In this document: positions 1-8,256 of the stretch, in pieces
Layout: every line of letters begins with the position of its first letter
Position numbering within the stretch: position 1 is the first letter of the stretch
Origin: a virus
Lineage: Duplodnaviria > Heunggongvirae > Uroviricota > Caudoviricetes
Virus record (IMG/VR): IMGVR_UViG_2531839239_000027
Direction: 5' to 3' (one strand)
Length of the DNA: 8,256 nucleotides
Position numbers and translations under genes: made by a program
The notes under the pieces: model-generated
Told to the model about the DNA's origin: nothing
Seen by the model: the letters and a program-made list of their open reading frames with translations, nothing else
Databases searched by the model: none

Positions 1-1242
1 ATGGCGAGAAAAACACCCCCATTAACCACAGTACAGATCAAAGCAGCCAGACCAGCAGAAAAGGAATACACCCTACAGGACGGCGGAGGGCTTTTTCTCC
101 TGATCAAACCGTCCGGATCAAAACTCTGGAGATTTTCCTACTACCGACCATCGGACAAAAAAAGAATATTGCTGAGTTTTGGATCGCTTGATGATGTTTC
201 CCTGGCTGATGCCAGAAAACGCCGTAGCGAGTACAGGGCGTTAATTCGTGCCGGAACTGACCCGCAGGACCACGAGAGGCAAAAAAGAGAGACAGAGGCC
301 CGAAGACAAGGGAACACGTTCGAAAATGTGGCAACAGCATGGTACCAGGTGAAAATCAGCCAGAATCTGGCCCCCAATACGATTAAAGACATCTGGCGAT
401 CGCTGGAAAAATATGTATTCCCGTTCATCGGCAACACGCCAATAGACACCCTGACCGCTCGCAGGTTTGTTGAGGTGCTTACCCCCATCAAGGAACGTGG
501 CAACCTGGAAACGCTCAAGCGAGTTTTACAGCGTGTAAATGAGGTAATGGATTACGCCGCCAATAGTGGGATGATTGATGCCAATCCGGCTATGAATGTG
601 CGTAAGGCGTTCCCCTCCCCTGTAAAAAAACATATGCCAACAATCCGCCCCGAACAGCTGCCGGAGCTTATGCAGGCTTTATCAGTATCGGCAACAGAAC
701 GGCAGACCAGATTACTGATTGAATGGCAGTTACTGACCGTAACCCGTCCCGTTGAAGCATCGTCGGCACGCTGGGAAGAAATCGACATGGAGGCGCAACG
801 CTGGACCATACCCGCCGGACGCATGAAGATGCGCCGCGACCACGTTATCCCGCTTTGTGACCAGGCTATGGCAGTGCTGGAGGCTATGAAACCAATCAGC
901 CACCACCGCGATTATGTTTTCCCAAGTCTGAAAGACCCACGGCAGCCGATGAACAGCCAGACAGCAAACGCAGCATTACGACGCATGGGGTTCGCTGGCG
1001 TGCTGGTGTCTCATGGATTACGCGCCATATTCAGCACAGCAGCGAACGAGGAAGGATTCGAGCCGGACGTAATCGAGGCGGCACTTGCCCACGTCGACAC
1101 CAACGAAGTCAGACGGGCATACAACCGGAGCAACTACATAGAAAAACGCGTGGTGCTTATGCGCTGGTGGGGCGAATTTGTCGAGGCTGCGGCGACGGGC
1201 GTAACCCTCGCCAGTGGTAAAAGGGGTATCCGAGCCGTTTAG
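1..1242 (+). CDS. int: P4-type tyrosine integrase / site-specific recombinase
   Basis: 413-aa ORF starting at window position 1. N-terminus (LQDGGGLFLLIKPSGSKLWRFSYY...SLADARKRR) fits the arm-binding domain pattern of P4-family integrases. C-terminus has H-x-x-R (HGLRAIF) and the LAHV...RAYNRSNY tyrosine box of tyrosine recombinases. Its promoter and any att site lie outside the window. Confidence 0.9.
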   Translation: MARKTPPLTTVQIKAARPAEKEYTLQDGGGLFLLIKPSGSKLWRFSYYRPSDKKRILLSFGSLDDVSLADARKRRSEYRALIRAGTDPQDHERQKRETEARRQGNTFENVATAWYQVKISQNLAPNTIKDIWRSLEKYVFPFIGNTPIDTLTARRFVEVLTPIKERGNLETLKRVLQRVNEVMDYAANSGMIDANPAMNVRKAFPSPVKKHMPTIRPEQLPELMQALSVSATERQTRLLIEWQLLTVTRPVEASSARWEEIDMEAQRWTIPAGRMKMRRDHVIPLCDQAMAVLEAMKPISHHRDYVFPSLKDPRQPMNSQTANAALRRMGFAGVLVSHGLRAIFSTAANEEGFEPDVIEAALAHVDTNEVRRAYNRSNYIEKRVVLMRWWGEFVEAAATGVTLASGKRGIRAV

Positions 1243-1284
1243 CTGTACAGAAAACCAGTAAAAACTACGAAAACCATTTAAAAC

Positions 1285-1314
1285 CGTCGTATAATTGCAT
1301 CACATTTAACGACG
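1285..1314 (+). promoter_or_regulatory. Candidate sigma70 promoter: perfect -10 TATAAT (1290-1295), weak -35, flanked by inverted repeat CGTCGT(1285-1290)/ACGACG(1309-1314)
   Basis: TATAAT hexamer read directly; no good TTGACA-like -35 at 17 bp. The 6-bp inverted repeat brackets the -10 and predicted start site, so it could be an operator. Not verified. Confidence 0.35.
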
Positions 1315-1340
1315 AGGCCTTGAAAAATGAAACCGTTAAG

Positions 1341-1571
1341 ATGCAAACAAATTTCAGATGCAATTGCGACGGGCTGCAACTGGCCCTGATGGTTCAGCAT
1401 GAATTTTGGTCAACCTACGATCCGGAGGACAGAACGACGGCCCCATCAAAAAAACAGGTAGTAGATTTCCTGGTATCCCGTGGAGCTTCCAGAAATCTGG
1501 CTGTAAGTATTGATAAGGTTGTACGTCCGGCATCCATGAAGACCGGAGGCAGGCCCAAAAAATGGCGGTAA
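1341..1571 (+). CDS. Hypothetical small protein with a possible HTH-like segment; may instead be a non-coding transcript
   Basis: ORF-track frame 1320..1571 (TTG at 1320, first ATG at 1341). Neither start has a convincing Shine-Dalgarno; the GAGG at 1314-1317 is best placed for an out-of-frame 19-codon ORF at 1327. The unit is bounded by the TATAAT promoter and a strong terminator. Segment GASRNLAVSIDKVVR is HTH-like by eye only. Confidence 0.3.
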   Translation: MQTNFRCNCDGLQLALMVQHEFWSTYDPEDRTTAPSKKQVVDFLVSRGASRNLAVSIDKVVRPASMKTGGRPKKWR

Positions 1572-1581
1572 CAATCCTGAA

Positions 1582-1606
1582 AGCGGCAGAAATGCCGCTT
1601 TTTTTA
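1582..1606 (+). terminator. Rho-independent terminator
   Basis: Stem AGCGGCA (1582-1588), loop GAAA, stem TGCCGCT (1593-1599), followed by a T-run to 1605. Confidence 0.7.
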
Positions 1607-1634
1607 TAAATCCCTTTCAAATCATCAATATAAA

Positions 1635-1720
1635 AAACGGTGTATACCGTTTAAAAACGGTGAGTACTGTTTTTCCCTGCATCCGATGATTTACCGTATT
1701 TCTCACCGGAATACACCGGA
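1635..1720 (+). promoter_or_regulatory. Candidate operator cluster upstream of alpA: two tandem palindromes plus direct repeats
   Basis: AAACGGT-N4-ACCGTTT at 1635-1652 (perfect 7-bp arms) and AAACGGT-N4-ACTGTTT at 1655-1672 (6/7), centres 20 bp apart. Direct repeats CACCGGA at 1704-1710 and 1714-1720. Shine-Dalgarno GAGG at 1725-1728 for the 1739 ATG. No clean -35/-10 pair identified. Confidence 0.4.
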
Positions 1721-1738
1721 TTAATGAGGTAAATCACG

Positions 1739-1945
1739 ATGGAAGCAATCAAAAAAGTCATCTTTCGCCAGGAAGTAAAAAAACTTATCCATATTAAGGC
1801 AGACAGCACGCTGCAAAGCATGATCAACGCCGGAGAATTCCCGCAGGGTTTTCGTGTCGGTTTGCGCCGTCGCGGATGGTATGAGGAAGACGTAATCGCA
1901 TGGATGAAAGAACGCGAACAAGAAGCGCGCGGAACGACCGCTTAA
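1739..1945 (+). CDS. alpA: AlpA-family phage regulatory protein (excisionase/activator-like DNA-binding protein)
   Basis: 68-aa ORF; motif ...SMINAGEFPQGFRVGLRRRGWYEEDVIAWMKERE matches the AlpA-family pattern (FP.G.r.G.r..gW.e.dv..W). GAGG 10 nt upstream of the ATG. Position just after int is typical of P4-like and PICI elements. Confidence 0.85.
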   Translation: MEAIKKVIFRQEVKKLIHIKADSTLQSMINAGEFPQGFRVGLRRRGWYEEDVIAWMKEREQEARGTTA

Positions 1946-1970
1946 CATATATAGGGCAAATGATGAACAT

Positions 1971-1998
1971 AAAAAAAGCGGCCCCGAAATGGAGCCAC
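1971..1998 (-). terminator. Rho-independent terminator for minus-strand transcription
   Basis: Read on the minus strand: GUGGCUCC-AUUUC-GGGGCCGC (8-bp stem including two G-U pairs, 5-nt loop) followed by U7 (plus-strand A-run 1971-1977). Would stop transcripts from the RHH gene before they run antisense into alpA. Confidence 0.55.
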
Positions 1999-2066
1999 CT
2001 TTCTGAACAATTAACCCGCTGCGCCGTATGTGTCAACAATCATAAGCCTGGGCATGATAACCGCGA

Positions 2067-2270
2067 TCAGGCTGGTGGGCAATTATCTTGCTTGTTGGGG
2101 CCGTATTGTGCTGCCATTTTCATCCGTTCAGAACGTGAATATTTTTTTAGAAACTCATCAAGGACAAAAGCGCATGGTGCGAATCTTTCTGATTCATGCT
2201 CGAGCGCCATATTTTCGTGCTCTCTGTTCGTTTTTTGCGATGGTGTATTGGTTGATTCTTTATTGGTCAT
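2067..2270 (-). CDS. Hypothetical small protein (67 aa; alternative internal ATG at 2210 gives 47 aa); doubtful
   Basis: Only minus-strand ORF between the RHH gene stop (2328) and the minus-strand terminator (1971-1998), so it lies inside that transcript. Weak Shine-Dalgarno, lower-GC region, no recognisable motifs. Could be non-coding. Confidence 0.25.
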   Translation of the reverse strand: MTNKESTNTPSQKTNREHENMALEHESERFAPCAFVLDEFLKKYSRSERMKMAAQYGPNKQDNCPPA

Positions 2271-2327
2271 TGTGTGTACCTGTAAAGCAATGCGCCGTAG
2301 TACCTCACACCACGGCGCTGATAGTGA

Positions 2328-2633
2328 TTATTCTGATTCTTTGGCCTTGCGGCGCTGGAGTTCTTCACGTGCGACAGTGACGAGCTGCCCGATCTCCTCG
2401 GCGGCTTTGATTCCGAGTTTTTCCACCTGCGCCAGTGCATTGAGCGAAGAAATCAGGAGGTTTTCTCCGCTTCCTTCTGCCTGGCGGCGGGCGATTTCAC
2501 CGCGCATGGCGGTTACTATGAATCCGGCGTTGCTTTCACCGTCCAGTTTTACGGATTCCATGCCTTCAATAACATCATGCGGGATCCGAGCTGTCAGTGA
2601 TTGTGATTTTGCGTTTTTTGAACCTGTAGCCAT
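2328..2633 (-). CDS. Ribbon-helix-helix (Arc/CopG/MetJ-like) DNA-binding protein with C-terminal helical extension; putative repressor
   Basis: ORF-track frame 2328..2648 begins at TTG; the ATG at 2633-2631 with GAGAGG Shine-Dalgarno is the likelier start (101 aa). N-terminus KSQSLTARIPHDVIEGMESVKLDGESNAGFIVTAMRGEIARR has the beta-strand/helix/helix layout of RHH regulators. Divergent from the Icd-like-to-rep operon across an operator-rich region. Confidence 0.6.
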   Translation of the reverse strand: MATGSKNAKSQSLTARIPHDVIEGMESVKLDGESNAGFIVTAMRGEIARRQAEGSGENLLISSLNALAQVEKLGIKAAEEIGQLVTVAREELQRRKAKESE

Positions 2634-2654
2634 CTGTAATCCTCTCAATGAAAG

Positions 2655-2749
2655 TGTAAGACAATATACACATAAAAAGTCTTACATAAAAGCATTGACA
2701 TGTAAGCCACCTATAAATAAAGTTACTTACACCTTGTTAATGCAAGGTG
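2655..2749. promoter_or_regulatory. Divergent promoter/operator region: two TGTAAG...CTTACA palindromes, a sigma70-like promoter and a leader inverted repeat
   Basis: IR1 TGTAAGAC-N16-GTCTTACA (2655-2686). -35 TTGACA (2695-2700), 17-bp spacer, -10 TAAAGT (2718-2723), pointing rightward. IR2 TGTAAG-N19-CTTACA (2701-2731) overlaps the spacer and -10. IR3 CACCTTG-N6-CAAGGTG (2730-2749) sits at the predicted start site. A TATATT hexamer on the minus strand within IR1 could be the -10 for the RHH gene. Confidence 0.55.
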
Positions 2750-2829
2750 CAGAAACGACGAAACCCCGCACTGTAGGAGCAGTAACGGGGCTTCTAACCA
2801 CCAACGATAACGAGAGTATCGAGGTAGCT

Positions 2830-3030
2830 ATGAGAAATCATACCACACACCCGCAAGGGCGGGACTCGCACAACCTGAATAAATACATTTGGCGTTTTAT
2901 CGCCCTGAGCACTGCACAACCGCGCGTGATTACCATTGAGGCCACCAGCGAACAGGAAGCACGCCTGCAATCCCCGGCTGGCTGCGTGATGGTATTCGCT
3001 GCCCGTATTCGTCAGGGGGTAGGCTTATGA
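2830..3030 (+). CDS. Small protein resembling host cell-division inhibitor Icd-like proteins of P1/P4-type prophages
   Basis: 66 codons, the C-terminal part of the spurious long ORF 1900..3030. GAGG at 2821-2824, 5 nt before the ATG. Motif YIWRFIALS...TSEQEARLQ...VMVFAARIRQG matches my recollection of the Icd-like pattern (rF.f.a....A..E.aR...lAR.fvL.FAGR); from memory, not searched. Stop overlaps the next start (ATGA at 3027-3030). Confidence 0.45.
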   Translation: MRNHTTHPQGRDSHNLNKYIWRFIALSTAQPRVITIEATSEQEARLQSPAGCVMVFAARIRQGVGL

Positions 3031-3689
3031 GCCAGGAAATCACACTACAACAGGCAGCAGAACGCGCCCACCAAATCGAAGTTATTTGCGCACTGGCAGA
3101 GGATTACCCAAGCATGATGACCGACAGAGAATCAGGGGCAATCATCAGCTTACTTAAACGCCTTAGCGGTGAGGTCTGCGTATTCCTGATCGATGAACAG
3201 GAAAGAAGAACGCTTATTTCTAACGAAAAAAATGCGGAGGGGTACATGTGCAATAAAACCACACCGGACGCAGCCGCCGCGCTCACTACGCTGATGCACG
3301 CACTTATTGATATTGAATGCACGGCAGAGCTTGCGCAGGGAGAAGAACAGAAAGACCGGACACAGTTCGCCCTGGAATGTATCCGATACATCGCAACGCG
3401 GTCGCTGAATGACGCTAAAAATATTCTTGTTGCTGATTGTGAAAATGGGGGGGTTATGCGTGATGATCGTTTTAATTCCCTGAAACAAGAATTTTCCGGC
3501 GTTCCTGATGATGCGGCTGATGCGCTTTCGTCAATGCCAGAACTTATTAGAGCGGCTTTTTTCTTACTTTCCACGAGAGAATATAAATCAACGGGACTTG
3601 ATGTACTGAATATCGCCGCCGATTATGCGGAATATGTGGCAGAGGCGCGTTACAGAAGAAAATTTCCTGAGGATGTAAGCCATGCGTGA
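3027..3689 (+). CDS. Hypothetical protein (220 aa, acidic, predicted helical); function unknown
   Basis: Start overlaps the Icd-like stop; 8-nt overlap with the next ORF (ATGCGTGA at 3682-3689). G-rich Shine-Dalgarno-like stretch upstream. No catalytic or nucleotide-binding motif recognised. Confidence 0.6.
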   Translation: MSQEITLQQAAERAHQIEVICALAEDYPSMMTDRESGAIISLLKRLSGEVCVFLIDEQERRTLISNEKNAEGYMCNKTTPDAAAALTTLMHALIDIECTAELAQGEEQKDRTQFALECIRYIATRSLNDAKNILVADCENGGVMRDDRFNSLKQEFSGVPDDAADALSSMPELIRAAFFLLSTREYKSTGLDVLNIAADYAEYVAEARYRRKFPEDVSHA

Positions 3690-3920: not shown

Positions 3921-4220
3921 ATGAAACTTAAATATTCTGGCTTAACTGCCAGTGGCAACACTCACCCTAAATTTACGCGCGGTGATATTTACCGCGACCA
4001 GTACGGCGGCACGGTAATGATTAAGGGCGTGGCGGGACGGTGCGTAACTTACCGCCGTGAAGGTTACGAATATGATTGCGTGATGCCTGTTTATCAGTTC
4101 CGGCGTGATTTTTCTCTGGTACAGACCGCGCCGCATAACGTGCCCACCAGCAACGCCAGGGCACGGGCAAACATCCAGAAGCTGAAAACCATGATTAACG
4201 GATTCAGGGGCAAGAAATGA
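3921..4220 (+). CDS. Hypothetical protein (99 aa, basic, Gly/Tyr/Arg-rich)
   Basis: GGAG at 3906-3909; stop overlaps the rep start (ATGA at 4217-4220). No recognisable motif. Confidence 0.5.
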   Translation: MKLKYSGLTASGNTHPKFTRGDIYRDQYGGTVMIKGVAGRCVTYRREGYEYDCVMPVYQFRRDFSLVQTAPHNVPTSNARARANIQKLKTMINGFRGKK

Positions 4221-5617
4221 AAAGCGCACCGAACTTAAAAAAACAGCCTTACGACAAGATGACCGAAGTCATCATTTTTGCGGGTAGTGATGCGTGGGCA
4301 CATGCGAAACAGTGGCAGGAACAGGACGGGCGACTGGCTGGCGATAATGTGCCTCCCGTTGTGCTGGCTGATGATCAACTGGATGAACTGGCAGACCTGA
4401 GAATCATCGACGAGGGGCGCTATTGTGTCCGGCTGTACAAGGCAGGCCACATCAGGCCATCAAATATTAATGCCATTGCGCACAAGCTGGCGGCGGCGGG
4501 TGTAACTGATGCGAATTATTACCCCGAAGGGATGCACAGCCAGAAGCGGGAGAACTGGCGCGAATATCTGGAACGGGAGCGGGGGAAAAAGCCAGGGGAA
4601 GAAAAACACCACCAGCGAAAAACCACGCTACCAATGAGCGTGGGATCTGCCGGATACGACACACAACTTGATTACGTGGTTAAGGGGATTATTCCGGCGG
4701 TATCGCTGTGCAGCATATACGGGGCGAGCGGTTCATATAAATCGTTCCTTGCGGGTTCGTGGGCGTGTCACGTTTCCACGGGCCGCCAGTGGGGAGGCCG
4801 CAGGGTGGCGCATGGCGCTGTTCTCTATGTGGTTGGTGAAGGCGGTATCGGCGTTCCGCGTCGTGTAAAAGCCTGGGAGGTTGTGCACGGTGAGCAGGTG
4901 AAAAATCTGTATCTGGTAAACCGTCCCATCTTTCCGGCTGCCCCGCTTGATGTTGAGGAAATGGTTATCGCTGCCCGTCAGGTGGAACGGGAAACGGGTA
5001 AACCGGTTCGAATGATTATTCTGGATACGCTGGCGCGCTGCTTTGGCGGCAATGATGAAAATGATTCCCGTGATATGGGGGCGTTTATCCGTGGGTGTGA
5101 CGAACTGAAACGGCGCACAGGGGCAACGGTGCTGGTGGTTCACCATTCCGGCAAGGATGAAACAAAGGGGGCGCGTGGTTCCAGTGCATTTCGTGCATCA
5201 CTGGACGCCGAATACCGGATACGCAGGGAGGACGCAGGCAGCGAAGCGCTGGTTATCTCATGTACCAAAATGAAGGACGCGGAGGAACTCAAAGAAGCAG
5301 CATATGACTTACGCGTGGTGGAGCTTTTTACCGACGCTGACGGGGAGTTAATCACGTCGCTGGTGGTGGTGGATAAGCCGCGCCCTCCCGTTGAACTGGA
5401 GCGCATCGAGGAGGCAGGGAACAAGACGGAGAATCACGCCGCGCTATGGCAGTGCATCAGAACACGAACAGCACACGGGGAGGCGTGCACTATCGCCCTT
5501 CTCCGCGACGATATGAAAAAGCTGGGGTATGAGATGAAGCACTTCCGGCGCTGGCTGTACAAGCTGGAAAATGATGGCGTAATCGTTATTGACGGTGATG
5601 ACGTGCGCCCGCTGTAA
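4217..5617 (+). CDS. rep: Replication protein: RepA/DnaB-like RecA-fold ATPase (AAA_25-type helicase) with an N-terminal domain of unknown function
   Basis: 466 aa. P-loop region YGASGSYKS, Walker B-like MIILDTLARCF, and LVVHHSGKDETKGARGSSAF matching the RepA-family sensor pattern (vhH.gK....RGssa). Followed immediately by an iteron array. AGGGG Shine-Dalgarno at 4204-4209. Confidence 0.8.
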   Translation: MKSAPNLKKQPYDKMTEVIIFAGSDAWAHAKQWQEQDGRLAGDNVPPVVLADDQLDELADLRIIDEGRYCVRLYKAGHIRPSNINAIAHKLAAAGVTDANYYPEGMHSQKRENWREYLERERGKKPGEEKHHQRKTTLPMSVGSAGYDTQLDYVVKGIIPAVSLCSIYGASGSYKSFLAGSWACHVSTGRQWGGRRVAHGAVLYVVGEGGIGVPRRVKAWEVVHGEQVKNLYLVNRPIFPAAPLDVEEMVIAARQVERETGKPVRMIILDTLARCFGGNDENDSRDMGAFIRGCDELKRRTGATVLVVHHSGKDETKGARGSSAFRASLDAEYRIRREDAGSEALVISCTKMKDAEELKEAAYDLRVVELFTDADGELITSLVVVDKPRPPVELERIEEAGNKTENHAALWQCIRTRTAHGEACTIALLRDDMKKLGYEMKHFRRWLYKLENDGVIVIDGDDVRPL

Positions 5618-5819
5618 AAAGTGGGGAGTAAAAGTGGGGGGAGTGGGGAATTTAACAAAATTGAAACATAATTACCCACTTTCCCACCTGTATATACCCA
5701 AAAAAGTGGGGAGTAAAAAACATATTGAAAAACATAACGTTAGAATCACAAAAAAAAGAGGTGGGGAGACGGTGGGTAATTTCAAAAAGTGGGGAGCAAA
5801 AGTGGGGAGTAGTGGGGAA
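5618..5819. repeat. Iteron array flanking an AT-rich core; putative origin of replication
   Basis: At least 9 direct copies of GTGGGGAG/GTGGGGAA/GTGGGTA at approximately 5621, 5634, 5643, 5706, 5761, 5772, 5789, 5802 and 5812. Inverted copies at 5674-5689 (ACCCACTTTCCCACC). A-rich core 5651-5756 with repeated ATTGAAA(AA)CATAA at about 5659 and 5724. Confidence 0.7.
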
Positions 5820-6392: not shown

Positions 6393-6554
6393 ATGGCTAT
6401 CACAGAACGCGAGGCAAGCATCATTAAAGCCATTGGCGAGGAAACAAGAGACACCATAGCGCCATTGATGGAAAAGATCGCAGAGCTTGAGACACGAATA
6501 AACAAGCTGAGTGATGAAGTTGAAGGCCTGATCTCGTTACTCGGTGAGCAATGA
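6393..6554 (+). CDS. Hypothetical small helical protein (53 aa); not in the supplied ORF track
   Basis: Hand translation: MAITEREASIIKAIGEETRDTIAPLMEKIAELETRINKLSDEVEGLISLLGEQ. GAGG at 6381-6384, 8 nt before the ATG, which is 3 nt after the upstream stop. Heptad-like pattern. Confidence 0.4.
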   Translation: MAITEREASIIKAIGEETRDTIAPLMEKIAELETRINKLSDEVEGLISLLGEQ

Positions 6555-6640
6555 CAGGGGGGGAGTGTTCCGGCCGGAAAGTCGATCGCCCTGGACACCG
6601 CCCCCAGTCTCATTCATAGAAAATTTTGCTTTTCAAAAAA

Positions 6641-6660
6641 GTTACACGAAAAGTTACACC
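6641..6660 (+). repeat. Two direct GTTACAC(C) repeats 12 bp apart, immediately upstream of terS
   Basis: GTTACAC at 6641-6647 and GTTACACC at 6653-6660, each preceded by an A-run. Same motif and 12-bp spacing as the array inside terS. Confidence 0.5.
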
Positions 6661-6681
6661 CCCTCAAAACGAGGTTTTTGC

Positions 6682-7170
6682 ATGGCATTAACGACCAAAA
6701 AAAAGCGGTTTGCTGATGCGTTATCAAAGGGCACAAATCCAACGGAAGCCGCGATACATGCGGGATACAGCGAAAAGACTGCAAGGGTTAAAGGCTGGCA
6801 GCTATCCAATGATCCGGAGGTGAAAAAGTATCTTAAGGCTGTAACTTCTGATGTAACTTTTCAGGTTACAAAACCGAAAAAAGTTACAAAGAAAGTTACC
6901 GAAAAAGTTACACCGGAACGGGCATCAATTAACACCATTGAGATGATGGATAACGGCCTACCCGACCCCATCAAAGCAATGGGCAGGATACTGATTGACA
7001 ACATGGACACAGATCCAAAACTGGCTTTAGATGCCGCGTTTAAGCTGGCCCAGTTCACCCACCGCAAGATCGGCAGCATTGGGAAAAAAGAGGTTAAAAA
7101 ACTCAATGCCGCTAATGTCTCCTCAAATCGGTTCCCCATCCCTAAGCCACCAACTGGCTTAAAACACTGA
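6682..7170 (+). CDS. terS: Phage terminase small subunit (Terminase_2/P27-like N-terminal HTH)
   Basis: N-terminus MALTTKKKRFADALSKGTNPTEAAIHAGYSEKTARVKGWQLSNDPEVKKYL matches the TerS pattern (KQ.lF...Y...GNaT.AAi.AGYS.KTA...G..Ll.n..V..yi). ORF-track frame opens at 6544, but the ATG at 6682 with GAGG at 6671-6674 is the likely start. 162 aa from that start. Confidence 0.75.
   Translation: MALTTKKKRFADALSKGTNPTEAAIHAGYSEKTARVKGWQLSNDPEVKKYLKAVTSDVTFQVTKPKKVTKKVTEKVTPERASINTIEMMDNGLPDPIKAMGRILIDNMDTDPKLALDAAFKLAQFTHRKIGSIGKKEVKKLNAANVSSNRFPIPKPPTGLKH
6841..6914 (+). repeat. 12-bp-periodic array of GTTAC/GTAAC pentamers inside terS
   Basis: GTAAC at 6841 and 6853; GTTACA at 6865; GTTACA at 6883; GTTACC at 6895; GTTACACC at 6907. 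Spacings of 12 bp except one 18-bp gap. Encodes the low-complexity stretch VTSDVTFQVTKPKKVTKKVTEKVT. Confidence 0.55.
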
Positions 7171-7181
7171 GGTAGCGAACT

Positions 7182-7343
7182 ATGAGCGAATACATCACAG
7201 ACCCTATTGATGTACTCACGGAAATCATGAACGACAAGCAGCAGCCAACCGAAATACGGTTACAGGCTGCCGCTGTTCTGATGCCATATTTTCACGAAAC
7301 CCTAACCCCATGTTACCAGGAGGAAGAAGATAATGATTTCTAA
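7182..7343 (+). CDS. Hypothetical small protein (53 aa); not in the supplied ORF track
   Basis: Hand translation: MSEYITDPIDVLTEIMNDKQQPTEIRLQAAAVLMPYFHETLTPCYQEEEDNDF. GAGG at 7169-7172; begins 11 nt after the terS stop and overlaps the next start by 11 nt. Confidence 0.4.
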   Translation: MSEYITDPIDVLTEIMNDKQQPTEIRLQAAAVLMPYFHETLTPCYQEEEDNDF

Positions 7344-8256
7344 AAACATGAAAGGCGTGTCGGCAGTTCGCGCCGCCAGCGTGCTTACATCGTGTAAATT
7401 CAGCCATGCAGACGCAATTGAAATGACGAAAAAAAATGATCCGGCAGTATCGAAATTTCTTGAAAAATCCATTGTTGCCGGAATGACTACGGATAATATG
7501 CCGTCGCTGGTGGCAGAGCCGATAGTAAGAGAGCTTGGCGAGTATATTTTTTCGCAGTCTGTACCAGGCAAGCTAATCAGCAGCGCGCTGAATCTTCCGT
7601 TTGGCGCAAAATTGCAGTCAATATCAGGCAAGGGTAGTAAATGGCTTAAAGAAGCCGAAGAAATCCCTGTCAAAGAGGGAGAAGTAAACGAAAGTGCGCT
7701 AAAACTGTGCAAACTTGGCGCTATTGTGATGCTGAATAACGAGCTAATCAAATTTAGCACCCCTGGTACCAATTCAGCGATCAGAGACTTGATCACATCG
7801 GAATCGGTGAAAGAAATAGATAAAAAATTTCTTTCCAGTGACCAGGAGGTGGCGGGCGTATCCCCTGAGGGCGTGCTTAATGGTGCTGATGAGGCCGAAA
7901 ACTTCATAGAGCTTTTCAAAAAGCACATAGCGAACGGTAACACGCTTGCCACGTCGTCGCTAATCTTGCCCGTAGAAAACGCCTTACAGCTTACTGATGC
8001 TGAGTTCTGGCAGATAGAGCTTTTGAGAATACCGGTAATTGTGAGCGAACAGGCGGATCGCATGATGCTGATAGACGCTCAAAAGCTGATTATTAACGTT
8101 GAAGCCACGGTTATAACCCCAACTGATGAGGCGGTAATAAAAACCGAATCAGGGACGGTTAGCCTTTTCCAGAATGACGCTACAGCGTTCAGGGCAATCA
8201 CCTATTGCGGATGGCAAAAACTCGATAAGGCCGTCACCGTTCTGGCGAAAAGCTGA
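7333..8256 (+). CDS. HK97-fold phage major capsid protein-like (no N-terminal scaffold/delta domain)
   Basis: 307 aa, complete (stop at 8254-8256). GGAGG at 7318-7322. Segments SPEGVLNGADEAENF and ATSSLILPVENALQLTDAEF line up by eye with the HK97 gp5 segments EGQLLNGDGTGDNLEGL and ASGIVLNPRDWHNIALLKD. Alignment is from memory and unverified. Confidence 0.6.
   Translation: MISKNMKGVSAVRAASVLTSCKFSHADAIEMTKKNDPAVSKFLEKSIVAGMTTDNMPSLVAEPIVRELGEYIFSQSVPGKLISSALNLPFGAKLQSISGKGSKWLKEAEEIPVKEGEVNESALKLCKLGAIVMLNNELIKFSTPGTNSAIRDLITSESVKEIDKKFLSSDQEVAGVSPEGVLNGADEAENFIELFKKHIANGNTLATSSLILPVENALQLTDAEFWQIELLRIPVIVSEQADRMMLIDAQKLIINVEATVITPTDEAVIKTESGTVSLFQNDATAFRAITYCGWQKLDKAVTVLAKS

Follow-up and report, generated by a model that had tools for sequence, protein, structure and literature searches.

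The eta gene of phage P4 starts at the stop codon of vis (ORF88, a gene of the AlpA type), spans the immunity region, and ends as Kil. The immI region of phage P22 hosts the ribbon-helix-helix (RHH) repressors Mnt and Arc, a divergent ant operon and the antisense sar RNA; that of phage P1 is made of the c4 RNA, icd and ant. The locus described here shares traits with both arrangements. It resides in an 8,256-nucleotide stretch of DNA, hereafter called the window (IMG/VR record IMGVR_UViG_2531839239_000027, Caudoviricetes). Its core is the 382-nt segment 1946-2327, which lies between a rightward alpA gene and a leftward gene of the YlcI/YnfO family, likely to encode an RHH protein. One strand of the segment carries an open reading frame (ORF) of 67 amino acids (aa), labelled sm67, and a terminator. 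The other strand is part of a frame devoid of stop codons, which starts next to alpA and ends in frame as an Icd-like gene. The segment is best read as the distal half of a leftward maintenance operon, placed antisense inside an open, very probably translated rightward frame, a reading to which a probability of about 0.6 is assigned.

In P4, translation of eta from the late promoter prevents termination, and the transcript passes the immunity terminator and reads into the replication genes. A constitutive promoter located inside eta gives short transcripts, and full-length eta is translated only from the upstream late promoter PLL (PMC10111431, where the mechanism is credited to Forti et al. 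1999). Gram-negative phage-inducible chromosomal islands (PICIs) and capsid-forming PICIs (cf-PICIs; EcCIEDL933, EcCICFT073) are laid out in Integration, Bro, Replication and Late zones (PMC10111431; bioRxiv 10.1101/2022.09.08.507074). YlcI/YnfO and Icd are listed among the accessory genes of Enterobacter cf-PICIs (PMC13612085). In the papers on PICIs and cf-PICIs examined, the zone from alpA to the replication genes is treated as 'Bro network' genes or as accessory annotation, and a minus-strand operon made of an RHH gene and a small gene, antisense in an eta-like frame, is not mentioned. The silencing of Gram-negative phage-inducible islands, and its AlpA-driven override, are poorly understood.

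A rightward frame open across a leftward operon

The ATG of the long rightward frame is found 15-18 nt past the stop codon of alpA, and the tandem ATG codons and the Shine-Dalgarno (SD)-like sequence preceding them, which together occupy nucleotides 8-20 past this stop, mark the likely start (Table 1). The frame crosses, antisense, both leftward genes and all three spacers of the region. In the initial annotation of the segment, sm67 was taken as the only ORF there, and the open rightward frame, the strand-specificity of the terminator, a Chi site and a hairpin at 2292-2318 went unmentioned. On the rightward strand, ORFs 1900-3030 and 2030-2380 run over the segment as well.

Over the interval 1946-2829 the long frame contains 0 stop codons, versus 20 and 23 in the other two rightward frames. 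The significance of this figure was assessed by composite shuffles, in which synonymous codons were shuffled in the two leftward genes and dinucleotides in the three spacers. The probability of finding no stop in the window is 4e-5 to 9e-5, and the signal comes mostly from the spacers. Considered alone, spacer IG3 is stop-free with P = 0.008-0.010, and spacer IG1 with P = 0.04-0.10.

The frame is open across the sm67/RHH anchor in 133 of 133 distinct loci, for 179 to 819 codons. It is contiguous with the Icd stop codon in 94 loci, and ends at most 40 nt from the Icd start in 22 others. The remaining loci include 12 chains of overlapping or abutting long ORFs, in which an SD and an ATG are often found just after the preceding stop, and 5 loci without a detectable Icd-like match. 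The frame stays open through module swaps, as through a 678-bp insertion in locus L002, where it measures 607 codons. Sixteen loci, which include Enterobacter soli, two Serratia, Yersinia pekkanenii, Pseudomonas lundensis and Pectobacterium, each give no-stop probabilities ranging from 3e-3 to 4e-8. The frame is also open in six other genera.

The start of the frame is positioned in a way that would allow translational coupling to the upstream gene. Relative to the stop codon of the preceding gene, the first ATG has position -7, or one from +9 to +18, in related loci. In many lineages it overlaps the stop codon of alpA, or of an antA-type gene, or lies 9-12 nt beyond it. The ATG usually follows GGAGG, AGGGGAG or GAGG motifs.

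Codon usage in the leftward genes bears on the same point. Synonymous codons which would create rightward stops before Tyr, His or Gln residues occupy 2 of 37 contexts in the leftward genes; for the Icd control the figure is 27 of 75 (Fisher p = 2e-4). The Icd alignment is heterogeneous, features no excess of conservative replacements in the sense frame, and served as control for stop creation and codon context only. Stop-creating changes silent in the leftward genes were observed once, versus ~6.9 expected (Poisson p = 0.008). In alignment A3, made of 25 diverse RHH family members (2553 residues), there are 1 Tyr, no Trp, and almost no Cys residues. The scarcity of Tyr fits avoidance of rightward stops, but could also be a trait of the family.

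The predicted rightward product is rich in Ser, Cys and Arg over the segment, and changes wholesale between mosaic variants. It is not conserved as a protein over this stretch, and a Pfam search with the 381-aa frame gave no match. Sequence comparisons indicate that the frame is kept open by selection, beyond what the relatedness of the loci explains. Most simply, these data can be read as showing a translated frame whose translation matters, and not its product. As the frame is conserved opposite real leftward genes, both strands of the satellite control region appear to be under selection. A wider reading is held tentatively, at somewhat less than even odds. It posits that a frame of >1 kb is translated across the antisense of a whole two-gene repressor operon, its spacers and its terminator, in satellites of Enterobacterales and Pseudomonas, and that selection preserves translation, for anti-termination or read-through protection, rather than a protein.

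sm67, its terminator and the upstream RHH gene

The initial annotation placed the 67-aa ORF correctly, and regarded it as doubtful, with weak initiation signals. The ORF is intact and starts with ATG in 131 of 131 related loci (virus-like contigs and genomes), which encode 52 distinct sequences of 49-71 aa. The motif CAGG, located 8 nt before the ATG, was found in all 39 distinct upstream variants, and its columns (64-67) are invariant in alignment A2, made of 19 upstream variants representing the 39. The alternative start at 2210 (Met21), put forward at the same time, is missing from most homologues. The N-terminal ~46 residues of sm67 are conserved (core ERFAPCAFALEKFLKEY), and H25, E26, S27, R29, F30, A31, P32, C33, F35, L37, L41 and R46 are invariant; the C-terminus is variable.

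The claim that sm67 lacks recognisable motifs holds for Pfam, but the protein matches phrog_21027 (E = 2.3e-12), and is annotated by PGAP as coding sequence WP_000182305.1. The family is tiny and essentially restricted to E. coli, as judged from searches of 5.8 billion and 1.84 billion proteins, and consists of 10 clusters among the 1.84 billion representatives. Searches of Pfam, NCBIfam and PADLOC retrieved only sub-threshold chance matches (DUF2371; Cas8g, 17.5 bits). sm67 is a highly charged helical protein, modelled by AlphaFold with moderate confidence (pLDDT 68) as a small three-helix protein, and a Foldseek search of the model against the PDB gave no match. In loci L094 and L111 a 75-aa ORF (MTNNTLSP...EKFALEDFVDKY...) is found 3' of the RHH gene, where it is preceded, as sm67 is, by the hairpin and by CAGG. 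This ORF resembles a divergent relative of sm67 which tblastn missed, and the family may therefore be somewhat wider than searches show.

The sm67 frame has a pN/pS ratio of 0.44, and one antisense frame a ratio of 0.49; values in the other four frames range from 0.84 to 1.18. Ordinary tests cannot separate the two frames with low ratios, because they share third codon positions. First and second positions are swapped, and each protein nearly fixes the other. Synonymous-codon shuffles were for this reason dropped as a means of deciding the coding strand, and replaced by substitution-class, BLOSUM and synonymous-context tests. Changes silent in sm67, but not in the rightward frame, are 2.6-fold enriched, and the reverse class 1.3-fold; the binomial p of the asymmetry (0.01-0.07) varies with the assumed transition bias. 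Changes altering both frames are conservative in sm67, the BLOSUM62 value being +0.35 versus -0.51 for neutral changes (excess +0.86). In the rightward frame the same changes are radical (-1.17 versus -0.67 neutral; -0.50). The difference between the two frames was reversed in 0 of 5000 bootstraps, and the RHH gene shows the same signature as sm67. Selection at the protein level acts on both leftward genes, and the frame specificity of the replacements marks sm67 as a genuine protein gene under purifying selection. About half of the segment, formerly described as a spacer, is a conserved protein gene. As a best guess, sm67 may assist or modulate the repressed state, or else interference with the helper phage.

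The intrinsic terminator found downstream of sm67 had been placed correctly. Its stem has 13 pairs, 9 of which form a GC-rich core, and a loop of 5 residues. The core stem spans 1978-1999, A-U pairs extend it to 2003, and a U7 run follows at 1971-1977. The minus-strand RNA folds with a minimum free energy of -19.9 kcal/mol (z = -5.0), and 0 of 200 shuffled sequences folded as well. Read as rightward RNA, the same DNA reaches -7.6 kcal/mol (z = +0.36), because G-U pairs turn into C-A mismatches. The fold predicts that the terminator works in one direction only. A simple terminator scan did not list this hairpin. Three different types of hairpins followed by T-tracts are found on the minus strand at this position in homologous loci, which argues for a conserved terminator function. 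Given the strong hairpin, and the T-tracts in homologues, the proposed leftward transcription from the RHH gene to the terminator is plausible. In the 65 nt which separate the terminator from the sm67 stop codon, no unusual degree of structure is seen (z = -1.8).

A second hairpin of the minus strand, located directly after the RHH stop codon, was flagged by the terminator scan. It has a folding energy of -19.8 kcal/mol (z = -2.3), and 87.6% of the alignment cells are paired, versus 22-56% in slid controls. Covariation analysis, suggested earlier as a check, gave a mixed answer. Pairing is conserved, but covariation is weak, non-significant, and mostly due to one-sided G-U changes; the hairpin is therefore called conserved, not proven. 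It is possibly an attenuator, or a processing site setting the RHH:sm67 ratio. Rfam searches at E <= 10 over 1200-3100 gave only terminator-like noise, with no C4 or isrK RNA, and no family matched the whole window at gathering score.

The RHH gene matches NF041551 (YlcI_YnfO_N; E = 6e-20) and phrog_6522 (E = 2e-56). The family is widespread in Enterobacterales, and some UniRef members are named Arc-like or CopG. The AlphaFold2 model (pLDDT 79) features an extended segment followed by helices H19-28, H35-54 and H59-100, corresponding to a predicted strand-helix-helix N-terminus and a 40-residue C-terminal helix. Weak matches to PSK_trans_fac, a Pfam family of the RHH clan, were obtained with 17 of 25 family members (best E = 0.0015). 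Against the PDB, Foldseek retrieved only noise, and sequence and profile searches only a weak helix-hairpin-helix-like match. According to the model and to family matches, the product is likely, though not proven, to be an RHH DNA-binding protein.

The organization downstream of the RHH gene varies among genera. In Serratia, Yersinia, Pseudomonas and Pectobacterium the gene is monocistronic, and a terminator follows directly. In Enterobacter only a dubious GTG-initiated ORF is found between gene and terminator, and in E. coli a cassette made of the hairpin and sm67 sits at this place. Six other genera have RHH genes devoid of sm67, as do several E. coli islands, some of which lost it. sm67 is therefore a lineage-specific second cistron, not an obligatory partner. 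The suggestion that the ORF might be the second gene of a two-gene regulatory operon is borne out by its conservation and by the frame-specific replacements. In L002 (3372-4106; E. coli O111 strains) the 678-bp insertion separates sm67 from the RHH gene, and contains, besides a pseudogene fragment, a further short gene of RHH-like type.

The divergent promoter region upstream of the RHH gene contains two inverted repeats, TGTAAGAC-N16-GTCTTACA and TGTAAGCC...CTTACA. The latter overlaps a rightward promoter-like site, which matches the consensus at 10 of 12 positions; the number of promoter sites in the scan was not above that of shuffled sequences. Judged from their sequence, the TGTAAG inverted repeats are probably operators for the RHH protein.

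Alternative explanations and a proposed switch

Several observations weigh against the picture of a selected and translated rightward frame, opposite a genuine two-gene operon. The N-terminal 290 aa of the frame contain no domain, and no Ash domain in particular. GC skew reveals no obvious Rho-loading signature, the SD of the frame in the window (AGGG) is weak, and SDs are poor in some lineages. Inside the two genes, synonymous shuffles leave the rightward frame open with P = 0.45-0.66. By themselves these shuffles do not make the open frame unlikely; what supports it are the spacers, the conservation across mosaics and the synonymous-site bias. As phrog_6196 aligns from ~2758, the 2740-2829 spacer is perhaps partly Icd-like coding DNA, which would weaken the window-level P roughly ten-fold. 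A 253-aa ORF, 7302-8063(-), is antisense to the capsid-like gene, and shows that long antisense ORFs can arise by chance inside genes. Most of the loci sampled are from E. coli and are related to one another; owing to mosaicism, greedy clustering into independent lineages left no more than 5 groups, and it was kept out of the statistics. On the leftward strand, sm67 has no informative homologue, the confidence of its model is modest (pLDDT 68), and the structural search gave no match.

Some of these points feed an explanation in which the open frame is a compositional accident of sequences antisense to coding DNA, and only the leftward operon matters. The two frames have their third positions in common, an antisense phase known to contain few stops, an open frame is not unlikely within the two genes given their proteins, and the ORF opposite the capsid gene is another example. 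Such an accident seems very unlikely. The non-coding spacers are stop-free too, neither insertions nor module swaps close the frame, which extends to as many as 607 and 819 codons and is also open in six other genera, its start has a position suited to coupling with the upstream gene, and synonymous codon choice avoids rightward stops (2/37 vs 27/75). The converse explanation, that the rightward frame encoding a long Icd-like protein is the sole real gene, and sm67 a shadow ORF kept open as a by-product, draws on genome annotations. PGAP calls the rightward frame an incomplete Icd-like protein, and omits sm67, in O55:H7, O157:H7 and other genomes; pseudogenes so named cover the sm67 region in L003 (2415-3008), L173 (1501-1980) and L174 (1414-1861). 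Calls alternate between sm67 and the Icd-like pseudogene because both frames are open at one place. The rightward frame is moreover selected to stay open and has an SD and an ATG, the pN/pS ratios are near-equal, and the leftward ORF is open in 27% of the shuffles synonymous for the rightward protein. Replacements nonetheless tend to be conservative when read in sm67, whereas those in the rightward frame exceed the neutral expectation in radicality. The substitution-class asymmetry favours sm67, whose ATG and CAGG are invariant, and the rightward product lacks domains and differs wholly from one mosaic variant to another. A shadow origin of sm67 is accordingly unlikely.

The segment might also be an untranslated structured 3' region, or a small RNA, of the RHH transcript, as envisaged in the initial annotation, with the 67-aa ORF arising by chance. 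The minus-strand RNA contains two stable hairpins, the ORF lacks a Pfam domain and belongs to a tiny family, and GC content is low. The segment, which had been called visibly more AT-rich than its neighbours, has indeed a lower GC content (45.3%) than the window (48.9%), alpA (48.8%) or the RHH gene (52.6%). The difference is modest, as 26% of equal-sized windows are as low or lower. That the segment acts as RNA alone is improbable in view of an ORF intact in 131 loci with conserved ATG and CAGG, of codon-frame specific replacements, and of the PHROG match; no Rfam family was retrieved, structure is unremarkable in the 65 nt before the terminator, and hairpin covariation is weak. The toxin-antitoxin-like pair, also proposed earlier, is most improbable. 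An RHH gene followed by a small gene is the order expected for a type II toxin-antitoxin, or a similar addiction pair, and the weak PSK_trans_fac matches are of the antitoxin type. For sm67, however, Pfam, NCBIfam, PHROG function categories and PADLOC yielded no toxin match, and the protein is a highly charged, helical protein with a variable C-terminus. The two genes are separated by a 57-nt hairpin-bearing spacer, not by a tight or overlapping junction, and the RHH gene is monocistronic in other genera and persists in E. coli islands which lost sm67.

The preferred reading, a leftward operon inside a translated rightward frame, can be cast as a switch, whose steps we infer from the arrangement of the locus. 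A leftward promoter in 2634-2700 would drive transcription of the RHH gene, and then of the hairpin and sm67, up to the terminator. In the quiescent island, the RHH protein would bind the TGTAAG repeats and shut the rightward promoter serving the Icd-like and replication genes; sm67 would be co-expressed as an accessory of the quiescent state. The SD and the ATG codons next to alpA would open the rightward frame, which crosses the whole leftward operon, from its terminator past sm67, the hairpin and the RHH gene, then the promoter region, and ends at position 3030. After induction by a helper phage, transcripts coming from the int/alpA side would pass the orientation-specific terminator, and continuous translation of the frame would shield them from premature (Rho-type) termination, as in P4 eta/kil. 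These transcripts would bypass the RHH-repressed promoter, and oppose the RHH-sm67 transcript by head-on collision and antisense pairing, flipping the switch. With both strands functional, the same DNA would encode the 'off' state and an 'on' read-through device, as in a bidirectionally coding switch.

The small gene and its terminator, taken alone, are ordinary but real; it is the conserved antisense frame that raises the interest of the segment. The locus points to a concrete switch, a repressor operon antisense to a P4-eta-like read-through frame. If true, it would be among the better comparative cases of functional antisense overlap in bacteria, a contested topic, and would indicate that selection can act on being translated, instead of on the product. 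The segment is widespread, as matches were found in 1653 of 5426 complete E. coli genomes, covering at least 80% of its length in 833.

The host island and known systems

The window shares 100% identity with an island in the chromosome of E. coli 2013C-4538, which adjoins tRNA-Pro, downstream of yejM. Judged by gene layout, it represents a cf-PICI-like satellite of E. coli, of the capsid-forming kind. Homologous regions, showing ~74% identity, are carried by O157:H7 and O55:H7 genomes. In tblastn searches of a phage collection, the Icd-like protein matched one induced prophage, and the RHH protein none. The alpA product is annotated by PGAP as an HTH/AlpA-family regulator, and matches phrog_66 and phrog_2790 (excisionase/regulator) and, weakly, Pfam Phage_AlpA (E = 0.003). 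The Icd-like gene matches NF033153 (E = 2.4e-19), and several small genes are found between it and the helicase gene. Features of the window are listed in Table 1.

Table 1. Coordinates of genes, sites and predicted structures in the 8,256-nt window (+, rightward; -, leftward)
Feature	Position	Strand	Remarks
Integrase gene	1-1242	+	
Small ORF	1320-1571	+	
alpA, AlpA/Vis-type regulator	1739-1945	+	Gene to which the long frame attaches
Stop-free frame, 381 codons	1885-3030	+	356 aa from ATG 1960; ends in frame as Icd-like gene
SD-like AGGG (1953-1956) and tandem ATG ATG (1960-1965)	1953-1965	+	Likely start of the long frame, read from sequence
Intrinsic terminator of the RHH-sm67 operon, hairpin and U7	1971-2002	-	Predicted from fold
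sm67, 67-aa ORF	2067-2270	-	Second cistron of the RHH operon
Chi site GCTGGTGG	2071-2078	+	Overlaps last codons of sm67
CAGG ribosome-binding motif	2279-2282	-	8 nt before sm67 ATG
Hairpin between RHH stop and sm67	2292-2318	-	Directly after RHH stop; terminator scan, fold
YlcI/YnfO-family RHH-type gene	2328-2633	-	101 aa from PGAP start 2633
Four TGTAAG half-sites, two inverted repeats	2655-2733		Operator-like; divergent promoter region
Promoter-like site TTGACA-17-TAAAGT	2695-2723	+	Inside long frame, faces Icd-like gene; consensus match only
Icd-like (Kil-type) gene	2830-3030	+	Own GAGGT SD; nested at 3' end of long frame
RepA-type helicase gene	4217-5617	+	
Small terminase-like ORF	within 6544-7170	+	
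Capsid-like gene	7333-8256	+	

Chi sites are abundant in the island. The window contains eight copies of GCTGGTGG, versus 0.23 expected from shuffles, at 1163, 2071, 5131, 5359 and 7506 on the plus strand, and at 2942, 4144 and 4609 on the minus strand. Across the 133 related loci Chi density is 0.86 per kb, roughly four times the average of the E. coli chromosome, which is ~0.22 per kb. Of 101 distinct loci, 98 have a plus-strand Chi site, sometimes duplicated, in the interval -120 to +40 nt around the stop codon of sm67. Chi sites may protect replicating or packaged island DNA from RecBCD.

Other repeats and structures mark the rightward genes. The leader of the Icd-like gene, 2724-2832(+), folds with unusual stability into three hairpins (-33.8 kcal/mol, z = -3.56), and matches no Rfam family, C4 and isrK included. 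A stretch around 'GAVTGLLTTN', in the Icd-like leader region, recurs in other loci at both peptide and nucleotide level. Directly after the helicase gene, at 5615-5809, five copies of AAAAAGTGGGGAG are arranged in two 45-nt blocks; as judged from sequence and position, they are probably iterons of the replication origin of the island. At 6639-6912, just before and inside the small terminase-like ORF, AAGTTACA occurs six times without mismatch (0.2 expected), in four direct and two inverted copies; these probably form an array of packaging-site repeats.

The window shares with PICIs and cf-PICIs the int and alpA genes, the RepA-type helicase, and the small terminase-like and capsid-like genes. 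The leftward operon recalls type II toxin-antitoxin systems with RHH antitoxins in having the RHH gene first and a small gene second, as in the weak PSK_trans_fac matches. It differs from them in the absence of a toxin family, in the long spacer, and in the second gene being dispensable in many lineages.

As in the immI regions of P22 and P1, a small RHH-type repressor gene diverges from an operon beginning with an Icd-type gene, operator-like inverted repeats overlap a promoter-like site, and sense and antisense transcription through the control region would be geometrically unavoidable. The predicted RHH N-terminus followed by a long C-terminal helix is reminiscent of Mnt. In contrast to P22, neither sequence nor fold searches detected a match of the protein to Mnt or Arc. 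The Icd-like gene of the window is not followed by an anti-repressor gene, and the antisense partner is a frame of >1 kb, predicted to be translated, not a short RNA.

The closest precedent of the rightward frame is, by analogy, P4 eta/kil. In both, a long frame comes next after an AlpA/Vis-type gene, and starts at or close to the stop codon of that gene. NF033153 matches residues 146-193 of P4 Eta (E = 1.2e-20) and residues 309-352 of the window frame (E = 4.3e-18). A promoter-like site inside the frame, the candidate analogue of PLE, is found upstream of a short gene which can be started independently, and replication genes come after. The two differ in several respects. P4 Eta carries the Phage_ASH domain (E = 3.8e-23), whereas the window frame has no Pfam match; the Ash domain is carried by some relatives of the latter (L119, L022). 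Immunity in P4 is exerted by an RNA (CI/seqA, Rfam C4/isrK), and none was detected in the window. An anti-termination role has been shown experimentally for P4 only. The upstream 290 codons of the window frame, two-thirds of it, are antisense to an RHH-sm67 protein repressor operon provided with its own terminator, an arrangement unreported for P4. By this comparison, the arrangement is probably a P4 eta/kil-like device superimposed on a repressor operon.

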